Under the pieces are notes generated by a model. It saw only the letters and a program-made list of their open reading frames with translations, made no database searches and was not told the origin of the DNA. The position numbers and the translations under genes are program-made. Shown piece by piece: positions 1 through 22,040 of a stretch of 26,403 nt of DNA (the first letter of the stretch is position 1; the number at the start of each line of letters is the position of its first letter). Origin of the DNA: a virus (taxonomy: Duplodnaviria > Caudoviricetes); the IMG/VR virus record IMGVR_UViG_3300005805_000404, positions 1-26,403 of that record; one strand, written 5' to 3'.

Positions 1-1116
1 ATTATACCTACTTACTGCTTCTTCTTCTGTTTCTAAATTTTTAGCAGGTGGTGGTGTTGTTGCTTGTTGAGGATATCTATAATATCCTAAAAATCTACCA
101 TCAGTTCCATAATGAGGATACCAATTATTATCTTGAGTTTGTGTTTTAGGTGTTTCTGTTTGATATGTAATCTGACCTGTTTTAGAATCAATTACTGGAG
201 TAACATTTTGTGAAGGTGGTTTTGATATATTTGTTGAAGTATTAGGGGTTGCGGTATTTTTTAAAGTGTTAGTATTAGGATCTATTTTCGAACCTGTACC
301 AGATGGTTCAGTTCTTGGTGGTTGCAGTGTTATAGGTCTACCAGTTGATCCTCTAACATTAGGATTTGGTGGAGTTTGGGGCCGTACTTCAGGTTTACTA
401 GGTTCAATCATATCCTCAAGTCTAGGTTTTACTGGAATTCGTGCAGCAGGTTGTTGTGTAGTAGATTGTTGTGTAGTAGATTGTTGTGCAGTAGATTGTG
501 TAGTAGATTGTGCAGCAGGTTTTTGTCCTCTAATTACTATATCTTTTTTAACATTAGGAAAAATTAAATTTTTATCTCTTTGTAATATTACATCTACTAT
601 ATTATTTGAACGATTAGTATATGTAGCATTTCCATATTTATCATATGTTACTACTGGATTTTTATTTTCACCCAAAGTAATTCTACCAGTTCCTTTTTTA
701 TCATATGTTATTACTGGATTTATATTTTTTGGTGTAGGTTTTTGTGTAGGTATTGGTGTATAAGTAGTAGGTGGTGTAAGTTTTTGTGTAGATAAATTTT
801 TATATTCTTTTCCAATTGCTTGTGCTGTAGGATATAATTGTTCACCAGCAGCAAATGATCCTGCTACTTTTGCAACTTTACGAGTTTTACTAACATTTGC
901 TGCTTGCTTAGCAGCATTTGCTAATTTAGCAGCTTTCAGTCCTTTAGATGCAAGATTAAGAACAGGAACGAAATTAAGACCTGCTTGAACAGCAGATCCA
1001 ACTGCACCTTTAACATTACCTTCTCTAGCTTTTCTAACTGTATCTTTAATATCACCTGTAAAAAAAGTATCTACACCTTTTAAAGCTGCTCTTGCAACAT
1101 TATTAAAACTAGCCAC
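1..1116 (-). CDS. Probable internal virion/ejection protein, truncated by the window start (VASFNNVARAALKGVDTFFTGDIKDTVRKAREG...TEEEAVSRYN); not in the ORF track
   Basis: GTG at 1116-1114 preceded by GAGGTG and a late-promoter motif at 1143-1163. The frame translates without stops in the parts I checked, including the window edge. Ala/Lys-rich N-terminus and Pro/Thr/Gln-rich linkers; lies after the tail genes, where podoviruses place ejection proteins. Confidence 0.7.
   Translation of the reverse strand, partial: MASFNNVARAALKGVDTFFTGDIKDTVRKAREGNVKGAVGSAVQAGLNFVPVLNLASKGLKAAKLANAAKQAANVSKTRKVAKVAGSFAAGEQLYPTAQAIGKEYKNLSTQKLTPPTTYTPIPTQKPTPKNINPVITYDKKGTGRITLGENKNPVVTYDKYGNATYTNRSNNIVDVILQRDKNLIFPNVKKDIVIRGQKPAAQSTTQSTAQQSTTQQSTTQQPAARIPVKPRLEDMIEPSKPEVRPQTPPNPNVRGSTGRPITLQPPRTEPSGTGSKIDPNTNTLKNTATPNTSTNISKPPSQNVTPVIDSKTGQITYQTETPKTQTQDNNWYPHYGTDGRFLGYYRYPQQATTPPPAKNLETEEEAVSRYN
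441..520. repeat. Coding 15-bp tandem repeat (TTGTTGTGYAGTAGA x3 plus shortened copies) encoding ST(A/T)QQ units
   Basis: Units at 451-465, 466-480 and 481-495, a 12-bp copy at 496-507, flanked by GTGCAGCAGG at 441 and 510. Confidence 0.9.
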
Positions 1117-1164: not shown

Positions 1165-2892
1165 TTAAAGCCCAGTTAGTTCGTACACCCTATCTTGTGC
1201 TGGTATTGCACCATTCTGATCTGTATTAGAAAAGTACATAAATCTTATTACTCCTGTAGCTACCTCTATAGGTATATCTGTCTTAATATCGTTAGCAGTA
1301 GACATGTTATCTGGTAGATCAGGATCATAATATATATAAGTAGAACTTACATAATTATATGCTGCAGTTGCTGGATAAAATCCAGGAGTTGCTGCACCTA
1401 GTGTTACATCATCTGCTACTCCATTTAATATTACTAGACCACTACTAGTATGCATATGACCTTGTAATGCATCTCTAGTAAATGTTAATGATGTATATGT
1501 ATTTGGTATATTAGTGTCATAATCAAATACAATACCTGTAGATTGTTCCCATAATGTCATATGCCATGTTGAAGTTGTTGTATTTTTATAAATGTAAGTT
1601 AAATCACCATTAGGTGTAAGTCTTATGTCTGTGCTATAATTACCTGATACAACAGGATTAAATGCAGCACTAGTAGATGTTGCTACTAAAGTAAAATTAC
1701 TATCATCGTTAGCATTTTTTAAATAAAAGAAAACATTTGAAGAGTGTTTTATTGCTGCTAAATAACCATGACCTGCAACTAAAATTGTTGCATAAGTTGA
1801 AGATACAGTAGTATCATCTATAGTTCCACCTGATGCAGTTGAAGGAACATCTGTTGCAGTCTTAACATATGTTAATGTTGTAGATGTTGGAGTTCCAGTA
1901 ATTGTATATGTACCATTAAAAGTTGCATCTACACCTGCTACTGTAATTTGCATACCTGATAATAATTGATGATCTGCTGCTGTAGTTAATGTTGCAACAT
2001 TTGAAGTTAATTGTTTATTAGTTACAGTTCTTATTTCTGGAGATACATTTAAATTACCTTTATCTACAGGAGCAGTATCTGTATCTGACATTCTCCAGAA
2101 ATTACTAGGTCCAGGTGATGTAGTAGTATAAGACCAAGTCCACATATTCTCAGTTAAATGATCAAATGCATTCCAGTCATTACCATTAGTTGCTAGAAAT
2201 GAACTCCAGACTACATCTCCAGGTCTTCTATAATGATAAGTACCATTAGTACTAGGTGTAGCAGCAGCCAATATAACTGTACCATTACCTTGCTGTATAT
2301 AAATATCTCTACCAAAACCAGAACCTAATGCTGTTGCAAATAAAGATGAGTTTACACTACTACTTCTAGTAAATGCATTAACTGTTGTATTACCATTTTT
2401 ACCAATTATAGTATCTGTACCAATACCAAAACTTCCAGCTATATCATGTGTTACTCCATATCCTGTAACTATAGTACTTACACCTTGTGTGGTTAAATCA
2501 AATGTTAAATCTGGTTGAGTAACTATTGGGAAGTTAGGACTTAATGCAGCAGCTGCAGGTAGAGGAACAGGTGTGATTGTTCCACTTCTCTCTGATATAC
2601 CAATAGCATAATATAAATCATCTATCTCTATAATAATAACTTCATCATTAGGAGTTAAAGAAGAAGGAGTTGTATTTAAAAATTCTAATATCTGACCATC
2701 TTCTGTAGTTCCTGAACCTAAACCATTTGCAGGATTATAAGTTGTTACTGTTAGTAATTGAGTAAATCCACCACCAAGATCACCTAAATCAGCTTTAGGT
2801 AAATTATCTAATTCTCTTTTAATAGCCTTAGGACCTTTATATCTACTTGGTCCATATCCAATAGTTATTTGATCTCTACGCATCGCTTCCAT
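1165..2892 (-). CDS. Tail fibre/spike-like virion protein (575 aa) with an inserted beta-rich module
   Basis: Thr/Ser/Gly-rich, beta-strand-like sequence directly after the tail nozzle-like gene, whose end it overlaps. Module VTNKQLTSNVATLT...GVDATFNGT at ~1819-2031. Confidence 0.65.
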   Translation of the reverse strand: MEAMRRDQITIGYGPSRYKGPKAIKRELDNLPKADLGDLGGGFTQLLTVTTYNPANGLGSGTTEDGQILEFLNTTPSSLTPNDEVIIIEIDDLYYAIGISERSGTITPVPLPAAAALSPNFPIVTQPDLTFDLTTQGVSTIVTGYGVTHDIAGSFGIGTDTIIGKNGNTTVNAFTRSSSVNSSLFATALGSGFGRDIYIQQGNGTVILAAATPSTNGTYHYRRPGDVVWSSFLATNGNDWNAFDHLTENMWTWSYTTTSPGPSNFWRMSDTDTAPVDKGNLNVSPEIRTVTNKQLTSNVATLTTAADHQLLSGMQITVAGVDATFNGTYTITGTPTSTTLTYVKTATDVPSTASGGTIDDTTVSSTYATILVAGHGYLAAIKHSSNVFFYLKNANDDSNFTLVATSTSAAFNPVVSGNYSTDIRLTPNGDLTYIYKNTTTSTWHMTLWEQSTGIVFDYDTNIPNTYTSLTFTRDALQGHMHTSSGLVILNGVADDVTLGAATPGFYPATAAYNYVSSTYIYYDPDLPDNMSTANDIKTDIPIEVATGVIRFMYFSNTDQNGAIPAQDRVYELTGL

Positions 2893-8073: not shown

Positions 8074-8080
8074 ATTATTT

Positions 8081-8170
8081 CTCCTCTCGAGTGGTCCCTT
8101 TGAGAGTGTCGATGGCCTCGATTCTCATATTACCTTGTTCGAATATTAGTTTACAGGGGAATATACCCCT
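8081..8170 (-). promoter_or_regulatory. Structured 5' leader of the scaffold-capsid operon
   Basis: Minus-strand hairpin AGGGG-TATATT-CCCCT, then nested stems TTCGA/TCGAG, GGT/ACC, TGAGA/TCTCA and TCGA/TCGA abutting the RBS GAGGAG. Confidence 0.5.
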
Positions 8171-8172
8171 TC

Positions 8173-12381: not shown

Positions 12382-12903
12382 TCAGCTATTCTGAAGATTG
12401 ACTTCGTAGCCTTTGGACCTAAGATAATCCACAACATTGGCTTCACCAAGAAGTGTAATCGAGTCGATAATAAGTTGATCAAGCGAAAGGCCAGCAAGAT
12501 CCGAAGTCCTTGCAGCCGATTCTTCAGCAACGAAATCTTTCCCATAAGTCTTGAAATATAGGTCGAGATATTTTGGATCACCTGTTAACGCTCCTTTTAC
12601 TAGTGTTGATTTTATCTGTGTATATTCATCTTCTTCAGAAGATTCAGGTTCATCTGCTATGATAGCAGGTGTTCCATCTACCGATACAGCTGATAGTCCA
12701 TTATTAACTCTTGTCGCTTGCTTCTTTTCAACAAGAGCCTTGAACATAGGATCATTCTGCCATCTTCTAAGGGTTCTATCAGAGACTTTATTAGCCTGGG
12801 CATACTCTTCCTTGGTTCTAGGTAGATTAAGTCTCTCTTTTTGTTCTGGCTCTAATATAAGCCAGTTAGCATATGACTCCCATTGAGGACTTGTGTGGCT
12901 CAT
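12382..12903 (-). CDS. terS: Terminase small subunit (HTH, 173 aa)
   Basis: 'WL..P...RL.PRTKEEYA...KVSDRTLRRWQNDPMF' HTH and 'ALTGDPKYLDLYF'; first gene of the packaging operon; RBS AAGGAG. Confidence 0.75.
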   Translation of the reverse strand: MSHTSPQWESYANWLILEPEQKERLNLPRTKEEYAQANKVSDRTLRRWQNDPMFKALVEKKQATRVNNGLSAVSVDGTPAIIADEPESSEEDEYTQIKSTLVKGALTGDPKYLDLYFKTYGKDFVAEESAARTSDLAGLSLDQLIIDSITLLGEANVVDYLRSKGYEVNLQNS

Positions 12904-12921
12904 ATATCTCCTTTAATAGAA

Positions 12922-13088
12922 TGAGAGAGCGGATCTTCCTTCCGAGAGCGATTGCTCACCATAGGAGGAGGTTGGGATATACTAGTGTCGATCTTTGACG
13001 AGAATTGCCCCTTAACTAAAAGTGGGATCCTCTAACATAATCACCAGTATTCATCGGATAGGCTCACATTAAATGATCCACCCTCTCA
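12922..13088 (-). ncRNA. Candidate structured RNA or cis-regulatory leader upstream of terS
   Basis: Five nested helices found by eye. Their mismatches become G-U pairs only on the minus strand. See findings. Confidence 0.6.
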
Positions 13089-13108
13089 CTATTATGTCCT
13101 ATTGGGGT
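13088..13108 (-). promoter_or_regulatory. Putative late promoter, copy 1 (ACCCCA-ATAGGACA-TAATAGT)
   Basis: Four-copy motif at the head of the packaging operon. Confidence 0.75.
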
Positions 13109-13270: not shown

Positions 13271-13800
13271 GACCCAACTGGGGACACACACCCTTCAAAT
13301 TTGATTATCTAGATTGTTTTTTCCAGTAGGACAGCTAGTATACCTGTGTCCCTAGATATTCCTGTTCTTTTTGTCCTTCAGGTCCTATATAGGGTTGTCC
13401 AGAAAATAGGAGAAATAGGTGGGTTTTTTAAGATCGGACCGCTAAAAACTTGAAAAAATGGCGTTTTGATAGTATATATATAGTAGGACCTCCGCTGGGG
13501 GAAACTGGGTATCTGGAATATCTGGAATATCCTGAATTAAGACAGGAATATCCTGAGACCTGTGGTCTGTAGGTGTTCCTGATATTAAGGTTATTAGGCT
13601 AGACCCTATACAACCTAAAAAATAGGACAGTAATAAATAGGTTTGTCAAGTATTACTATCAACTTTGTTGACTTGATATCTTGATTATGGTAAAGGATAG
13701 GTGGAATAAAAAACAGGTTTTAGGAAATTCCAATCCACCCTACTAATCAATTTGTCAAGTATCTAAAAATCAATTGTTGATATTATCAACTTTGTTGATT
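13271..13800. other. Non-coding divergence region with clustered short repeats; possible replication origin or genome-end region
   Basis: No ORFs. Inverted repeat CTGGGGACACA/TGTGTCCCTAG (13278/13345); GGAATATC x3 (13516, 13525, 13545); TTTGTCAAGTAT x2 (~13642, 13751); TATCAACTTTGTTGA x2 (~13657, ~13784). Confidence 0.45.
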
Positions 13801-16956: not shown

Positions 16957-17589
16957 ATGGAAGACAATAAATCAGCACTAGAAGGTGCTAGATTATTATA
17001 TAGAACTATCATGTTAGGTAATCATTATAATAATAAACCATACAGTGATGAGAGTGATGAACTATTAGACTTTCTTGGTCGCTCTGCATATATAACTTTA
17101 GATGTGTTGACAGACTTAGGTGATGATAAATACTCATCAGATAATCGTAAGAATATAACTCATATTAGATATCTGGCTGCTTTATTATTTGATAAAGATA
17201 CAGTATATGAATTAGCAAAAACTATACACTATATATTAGATAATGATAACCTAACTATCAGTGATATACAAGATATATTATATGGTAGCAGTAGAGATAT
17301 TGATATAAAAAAGATACAGACAATTGGTAAATTATTATATGAAGGTAAAAGTTATAGATATGTATCATCTGAAGTAGGTGTATCTTATGATACAATAGAA
17401 AGAATAGAAAGTTTCACAGGAATAAATCAAGCAAGAAAAGATAGGTTAATTGATCAGGCTTGTGATGCAGTAAGAGAAGGTGTGTCAGTTAGAACTTTCG
17501 CCAAGCAAGTTAATATACCAAAGTCTACAGCACATACAGTAATGAATAAAGCAAAGTCAGTATTAAAAGAACTAGGAGAGATACAATGA
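16957..17589 (+). CDS. DNA-binding protein with two C-terminal HTH motifs (210 aa)
   Basis: GKSYRYVSSEVGVSYDTIERI and GVSVRTFAKQVNIPKSTAHTV; RBS GGAGG. Confidence 0.75.
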   Translation: MEDNKSALEGARLLYRTIMLGNHYNNKPYSDESDELLDFLGRSAYITLDVLTDLGDDKYSSDNRKNITHIRYLAALLFDKDTVYELAKTIHYILDNDNLTISDIQDILYGSSRDIDIKKIQTIGKLLYEGKSYRYVSSEVGVSYDTIERIESFTGINQARKDRLIDQACDAVREGVSVRTFAKQVNIPKSTAHTVMNKAKSVLKELGEIQ

Positions 17590-21587: not shown

Positions 21588-22040
21588 ATGACATATCAAA
21601 AACCATATAATATAGATACTACAAGATATCAACATTCAGAAGAGATATTAAAAGCTCTATCTGTAATAGATGAATACTTTGTATCAGAGAAACCTGAAGA
21701 TCCATTGGTATTAATAGTCGATACTTTACTTGCTTTATTAGAAGATGATGAAAGAGCAGTTGTAGAAATGTGTCTTATGAAAAATATAAGTATGCATGAA
21801 GCAGCGAGAACATTAGGTTATATAAATAGTAATGGAAAAGAAGATCATAAAATGGTTAGTAGAAGATTGAAGTGGGCTCTAGTTAAACTAAGAGCAATAC
21901 TAGAAACACCATCTTTTGCTACAGCAATAGCAGGTCATAAAATGCCAATAGAAAATTATGAAGTTGTAGTAACAGATACTATATCTAACATAATAAAAAG
22001 ATTAGATATTAAGACAGAGGAGTTAGGTGATGAAGAATAA
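21588..22040 (+). CDS. Sigma70 region-4-like HTH transcription factor (150 aa)
   Basis: LALLEDDERAVVEM....NISMHEAARTLG...VSRRLKWALVKLR; no recognisable region 2. Confidence 0.75.
   Translation: MTYQKPYNIDTTRYQHSEEILKALSVIDEYFVSEKPEDPLVLIVDTLLALLEDDERAVVEMCLMKNISMHEAARTLGYINSNGKEDHKMVSRRLKWALVKLRAILETPSFATAIAGHKMPIENYEVVVTDTISNIIKRLDIKTEELGDEE

Follow-up and report, generated by a model that had tools for sequence, protein, structure and literature searches.

A four-way-junction RNA with an anti-Shine-Dalgarno loop at the start of the late transcript of uncultured aquatic phages

When analyzing a 26,403-nucleotide stretch from an uncultured tailed phage, here called the window, we found that the leader ahead of the terminase small subunit gene (terS) is predicted to fold into a four-way-junction RNA that holds the anti-Shine-Dalgarno (anti-SD) motif CCUCC in a hairpin loop. 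Searches with terS and terL brought up 12 further distinct copies, giving 13 distinct phages in total, and the RNA is a four-way-junction family not catalogued in Rfam. A sequence-only reading of the window had described a late-expressed structured RNA with an exposed anti-SD sequence, and the comparison of relatives supports this description. The carriers are uncultured aquatic phages of one family.

The window has two divergent gene arms. The minus-strand arm encodes TerS, TerL, portal, scaffold, capsid, and adaptor proteins, and the plus-strand arm encodes an exonuclease, a helicase, and small genes. The terS gene (12382..12903, minus strand) was assigned from a weak PHROG match (phrog_2538, E value of 4e-4) and its position before terL. 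A homology search gave 73 terS homologues, and all 13 RNA carriers fall into a single terS clade (support of 99/97); because all belong to one clade, they share one origin and are not independent replicates. No close cultured phage was found (best terL identity of 27%), no relative was found in the species-genome collection, and WhiB was absent from the 5 records examined. A sister-clade genome encodes an endolysin of the VanY type, which is typical of freshwater actinophages. We also noticed a conserved stretch (CCCCAG..TATATAT..A/T-tract; 13430-13510, minus strand) that is present in relatives as well; many contigs start near it, and it is possibly a packaging or genome-end site.

The five helices claimed by the sequence-only reading, together with its ACCTCCTCCT segment, are all found in place on the minus strand. 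The minimum free energy on this strand is -57.5 kcal/mol (z score of -3.07), and none of 200 shuffles was equally stable; a repeat run with 60 shuffles gave a z score of -2.43, and the plus strand gave -1.02. In the 12 homologues, the sense z scores range from -1.45 to -4.25. The sense strand beats the antisense strand in only 7 of the 12, so folding energy alone leaves the strand unfixed. What fixes it as the minus strand is the outer closing stem, P1, where the 13 sequences have eight G-U cells versus one A-C cell.

The core has the order P2, U, P3, CC(A/U), P4 with a C-rich loop, P5, and P2, and P1 closes it (all coordinates on the minus strand). The 5' strand of P1 (13075..13088) is a purine tract common to other late transcript starts, with 93.6% of cells paired and double changes in 4 of 12 pairs; its pyrimidine-rich 3' strand lies at 12922..12935. 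Behind the variable 5' side of the P1/P2 internal loop (13063..13074), which is missing from the homologue L061, comes P2 (13054..13062 with 12938..12945), where 7 of 8 pairs changed on both sides. A single U (13053), invariant in 13/13 sequences, links P2 to the P3 arm (12976..13052). The base of this arm is a conserved GA/UC (AA/UU in L010), and its distal part is variable; L064 and L061 retain just a short hairpin there. The CC(A/U) linker (12973..12975) is followed by P4 (12958..12972) and the P5 hairpin (12946..12957), which has an invariant GA/UC base and a variable loop. P4 is a 3-bp helix of ACC and GGU (12972-12970 with 12960-12958) that the sequence-only reading had overlooked, and it makes the anti-SD segment the hairpin loop of a four-way junction: the C-rich loop spans 12969-12961, and CCUCC (12968-12964) lies in the loop region in 13/13 sequences, with a predicted unpaired probability of 0.23 to 1.0. 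The helix formerly named P4, with its CCC/GGG cap, is present in the window but belongs to the variable arm, which L064 and L061 have lost, and is dispensable. Unpaired invariant positions are almost all pyrimidines and are clustered around the junction. Swapped partners for the GA/UC pairs of the junction are conceivable, but the AA/UU of L010 favors the register given here.

Covariation in the relatives agrees with this fold. In the plain MAFFT alignment (12 sequences), 16 of 32 pairs changed on both sides, and 89.7% of cells pair. No shuffled or slid control came near the observed pairing, the controls being lenient in that the structure was taken from the same sequences. CCUCC and then GGUGA are retained in every member, while other loops vary or vanish. 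In the short forms of L064 (111 nt) and L061 (90 nt), the distal P3 arm is missing; L061, which has no P1/P2 loop either, is a natural minimal form. A model built from the 12 sequences recovered L061 as the 13th member (E value of 8e-6; 98 sources). Among relatives with 40 to 50% terL identity, the model search found nothing, the best hit with filters off being the sister-clade element described below (E value of 2.9), and a model search of whole records gave nothing new, with two carriers serving as positive controls in one run. Pattern scans of viral contigs and genomes yielded no model-confirmed member outside the clade; a single weak bacterial match, L249, had no fold (z score of 0.62) and was rejected. 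Rfam was searched at gathering and E-value thresholds with the window, 18 related loci, and the minimal form, and only chance matches came up; the sequence-only reading had likewise recognized no known family. No tRNA or tmRNA was found. An upstream ORF starting at a conserved AUG of the junction was considered and dropped, its lengths and frames being variable and the AUG missing in L010.

A late-promoter-like motif, CCCC-N10-WATRNT, ends on the first base of the RNA (13088..13107, minus strand) and stands before all 13 homologues; its promoter function is inferred. The window has minus-strand copies at 13107-13088, 10548-10529, 8192-8173, and 5781-5762, and the motif also precedes the scaffold and adaptor genes and lies inside terL ahead of the portal gene. 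At recurring sites, a purine tract directly follows it. At the adaptor gene this tract is the SD, and in scaffold leaders it forms a hairpin from position 1-3 (13/13 caught by the pattern; 22 loci). The covariation of these hairpins suggests that transcription starts 1-3 nt past the motif, which would be unusual for a sigma-70 -10 box. Since the purine tract of the scaffold promoters forms a hairpin from position 1-3, P1 is probably best read as the usual 5'-terminal stem of the clade, into whose loop the junction has grown. The other late promoters, spaced every few kilobases, come without the junction. If the motif is a normal -10 box, transcription would start inside P1. The earlier caveat that only part of P1 may be transcribed is weakened by the covarying outer pairs and by the hairpins that start from the same positions at sister promoters, but it still stands. 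Two proteins of the window are candidates for a late activator: a 150-aa protein (21588-22040, plus strand) that on visual inspection resembles a sigma-70 region 4 domain and has no relevant Pfam match, and a 210-aa helix-turn-helix protein (16957-17589, plus strand).

In two metatranscriptomes from different studies, contigs run from 13102 and from 13078 on into terS, and in two others they cover the leader only (6 kb compared). The contigs end at 13102, 13078, 13165, and 13074 and carry no information on strand, transcript ends, or level; the two that run into terS show that the leader and terS are transcribed in one piece. No terminator was found downstream of P1.

The scaffold gene has a second conserved structured leader (8074-8172, minus strand), with a 5' hairpin, GAACAAG, an inner hairpin, and CACUCG adjoining the SD. 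It is found in carriers, in the sister clade, and in relatives with 48 to 50% terL identity, has no Rfam match, and is possibly a translational operator. RNAs ahead of GP20 genes are reported in an earlier survey (PMC10690425).

The SD of the first late gene (12908..12913, minus strand) lies 6 to 9 nt behind P1 in 13/13 homologues. The SD of the gene that immediately follows the RNA outranks those of all other scored late genes in 10 of 11 genomes, the exception being the window (rank 3 of 6), and first-gene SDs average -10.3 in carriers versus -7.4 and -7.8 in RNA-less relatives, where the terS site is ordinary and the capsid gene has the strongest one. L061 is informative here. Several small ORFs (1181-2070, plus strand) lie between the RNA and terS, which they separate by about 900 nt, and the core is intact. 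The new first gene has AGGAGG (-10.3), terS is down to a weak GGAAGG (-5.7), and two of the inserted ORFs besides the first gene keep GGAGG sites. The RNA therefore belongs to the promoter and whichever gene is first and, being intact in L061 some 900 nt from terS, is not a terS operator. The proposal that it times terS translation is therefore only partly supported. The terS AAGGAG, named in the sequence-only reading as complementary to the loop, is predicted to be a weak partner (-7.8 kcal/mol, 18th to 21st of 32 start regions). The loop did not covary with the SD behind it (P of 0.38 and 0.13), and swapped SDs pair at least as well. Behind their intact loops, the window and L064 have AGGAG only. 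In 7/13 sequences the UCCCA linker could pair with codon 8 of terS, which was taken as chance, L061 having no such site.

We counted GGAGG in start regions of early and late genes. In nine carrier genomes it occurs in 2 of 93 late start regions (terS excluded) versus 19 of 58 early ones, only three genomes contributing a full early arm to the latter count. The ten nearest RNA-less genomes have it in 63 of 191 late genes, with 43 of 100 in five sister-clade genomes and 20 of 91 in five other near relatives. Gene starts came from a simple de novo caller with which homology-based calls agree, and the result is stable under three start-calling weights. The use of AGGAG is unchanged, at 28 to 29% of the late genes in each of the three groups, and only 2 of 25 late families contain GGAGG at all. 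Depletion of GGAGG inside coding regions is common to all groups and does not tell them apart. Instead, 15 of 93 carrier late genes have the SD form G[AG]AAGGT (e.g., 7034 of the window, minus strand), which is found in 0 of 191 near-relative and 0 of 219 distant late genes. The six best partners of the window loop among 32 start regions are all early genes, the helicase included, and early genes likewise take the top ranks in two other genomes; this ranking depends on the GGAGG counts, as the strongest SDs are the best partners for an anti-SD loop of any kind. A control with ten more distant phages (terL identity of 32 to 44%, no model match) gave GGAGG in 8 of 219 start regions on the terL strand and 57 of 182 on the opposite strand. 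Because these phages avoid GGAGG as well, the avoidance is not specific to the RNA and cannot alone be credited to it; it may be an older, general trait lost by the nearest relatives. Four distant phages that avoid late GGAGG share a hairpin that lies between genes and has a C-rich loop (L152 at about 987-1010, plus strand; G019, G024, and G025), and L154, L172, L173, and L176 have C/U-rich hairpins on the late strand about 2 kb before terL. A strict filter for such hairpins was passed by 6 of 39 loci, and they may be analogues of the RNA.

A different conserved element precedes terS in the sister clade (L066 118-215, L067, L068, L081, L120, L122, and L125; plus strand). It has ACC-loop-GGU-GAGC..GCUC-UCGG in common with the RNA, so that the P4-P5 half is similar, but its loop, CCCAAY, is no anti-SD; alternative pairings are possible, and homology was not supported by the model search. 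The sister clade uses GGAGG freely, and if the elements are homologous, the CCCAAY loop and this free use would fit the anti-SD reading. The element also shows that a P4-P5 scaffold can exist without an anti-SD.

Several known systems share features with the RNA. Cuckoo/RSs0680 (CcsR) of Alphaproteobacteria has 2 to 4 adjacent hairpins, each with CCUCCUCCC, and no multiloops (PMC4615179). The phage RNA is like it in the C-rich anti-SD motif of a hairpin loop, in the variable stems, and in cotranscription with a neighbor gene. Unlike cuckoo, which is encoded in bacterial genomes, it has one loop on a covarying four-way junction, a long closing stem, and a place at the 5' end of a late operon; the common core of this loop is CCUCC and the other loops vary, so CCUCCUCCC is not in every loop. 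Membership was rejected on these grounds, and the cuckoo/RSs0680 Rfam model matched neither the window nor the homologues. The 6C sRNA of high-GC Gram-positive bacteria binds mRNA targets through C-rich loops without a chaperone (PMC6486639), and C-rich-loop pairing to mRNA is the mechanism that we propose for the phage RNA. An SD-complementary loop, as in sRNAs of the 6C and RsaE types, is predicted in the consensus fold of all 13 members. However, 6C is chromosomal and has several C-rich loops and another fold, and the phage RNA has no Rfam match. T4 RegB inactivates early phage mRNAs at GGAG sites, its own included (PMC3014915); the proposed inactivation of early mRNAs through GGAG-type SDs, with autocontrol via an own site, would be similar, but RegB is a protein made early and acts by cutting, whereas here a late RNA would pair. 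T4 late mRNAs resist RegB though some carry GGAG, whereas carrier late genes are nearly without GGAGG. Fremin et al. mined the same viral collection in 2023, ignoring contig edges, for structured-RNA candidates by comparative genomics, and 14 of these lie before a putative large terminase, so that they are likewise structured RNAs upstream of phage genes (PMC10690425). Our RNA was not found in the searchable supplements of that work, and it may be among the unnamed candidates there. The passages of PMC5737381 that were consulted contain nothing on terminase, and literature searches listed no description of the RNA.

It is probable that the loop pairs with GGAGG sites. We tentatively propose, with less than even confidence, that it acts in trans as an anti-SD repressor of early mRNAs. 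P1, as a 5'-terminal stem, would protect the leader, which would accumulate either attached or as a decay product. The junction would keep the loop open, the weak P4 would unzip, and 6 to 10 bp could then form with GGAGG sites, damping early-gene translation late in infection and possibly that of host mRNAs as well. Late genes would escape via other SD forms, and the first gene behind the RNA, which mostly keeps GGAGG, would be throttled as feedback. The short duplex counts against this proposal, as the loop pairing spans 5 to 7 bp, and so do the lack of a terminator downstream of P1, the contigs that run from the leader into terS, the missing covariation of loop and SD, and the CCCAAY loop of the sister clade. 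The suggestion in the sequence-only reading that SD-led mRNAs are silenced in trans has circumstantial backing in the GGAGG split and the early-gene partners, but the distant control argues against its specificity. A broader version, in which genes are sorted by SD class and a late RNA imitating the 16S 3' end outcompetes ribosomes, making an early-to-late translation switch of RNA only, is doubtful. Control purely in cis would dose or delay the first late gene and have no action in trans, with the loop docking on the SD behind P1 as a pseudoknot or the P1 3' strand masking it once the 5' end is trimmed. We consider it somewhat less likely than action in trans. In its favor, the first-gene SD is strongest in 10/11 genomes, is unremarkable where the RNA is missing, and accompanies the RNA in L061, and the linker has 6 to 9 nt in 13/13; once the RNA has lost 7 nt from its 5' end, the P1 3' strand is predicted to mask the SD (accessibility of ≤0.1) in 7/13 sequences. 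However, the own SD is no better partner than swapped ones, the window and L064 carry just AGGAG, and the G[AG]AAGGT shift of other late genes is left unexplained.

The loop may also only resemble an anti-SD and make a tertiary or protein contact, the RNA being a promoter-proximal binding element for a protein or polymerase, such as a late-regulator site, a 5' stabilizer, or an antiterminator like put. That the RNA follows the promoter rather than a gene, that the invariants gather at the junction, that the 3' half of the sister-clade element is similar with a non-anti-SD loop, and that GGAGG is avoided also without the RNA all agree with such a role, which we still regard as unlikely: other late promoters without the junction recur every few kilobases, leaving less need for antitermination, and the strong first-gene SD is unexplained. 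It is very improbable that the RNA is a ribozyme of a new class and processes the late leader by self-cleavage. The compact conserved junction would suit it, as would P4 and its loop, which we take to resemble P3 and L3 of HDV-like ribozymes, and a type II hammerhead ribozyme (RF02276, 54.3 bits) does occur elsewhere in a clade member, among small early-side genes of L064 (231-297, minus strand), with none in the window. However, the L3 loop pattern of HDV-like ribozymes matched 0/13 sequences, and of the hammerhead core, which consists of CUGANGA and GAAA, CUGANGA is at the junction in 4/13 and GAAA is not at the matching place, so that these elements are not jointly conserved. The unpaired invariants are nearly all pyrimidines, and no Rfam ribozyme matched. 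The nested double pseudoknot given for HDV-like ribozymes (PMC10879173) likewise fails in 13/13, no consistent P1 and P2 partners being found around P3, and the catalytic C at J4/2 cannot be placed without P2. A packaging RNA like the phi29 prohead RNA (pRNA), an analogy drawn in the sequence-only reading, finds no support and is the most improbable role of all. The RNA does precede packaging genes, is a structured phage RNA of similar size, and has a CCA linker that recalls the CCA bulge of phi29 pRNA (PMC5066667). The same source describes pRNA as unique to phi29-like motors, and the phage has an ordinary packaging set of TerS, T4-type TerL, and portal. Unlike phi29 pRNA, with its two complementary interlocking loops, the RNA is a four-way junction and part of an mRNA, and inspection of the minimal L061 form revealed no other loop that is complementary to CCUCC.

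If translation is indeed switched by the RNA, early genes would be those with GGAGG, like host genes, and late genes those with a loop-resistant form. The RNA would then be a counterpart of T4 RegB and may be widespread in small tailed phages. To our knowledge, the shutdown of early and host protein synthesis by small phages without their own polymerase is poorly explained, and a trans repressor would be a compact answer with a matching genome-wide ribosome-site signature. Even if it acts in cis only, the RNA provides an uncatalogued four-way-junction family, a natural gene swap, and a defined late promoter motif.
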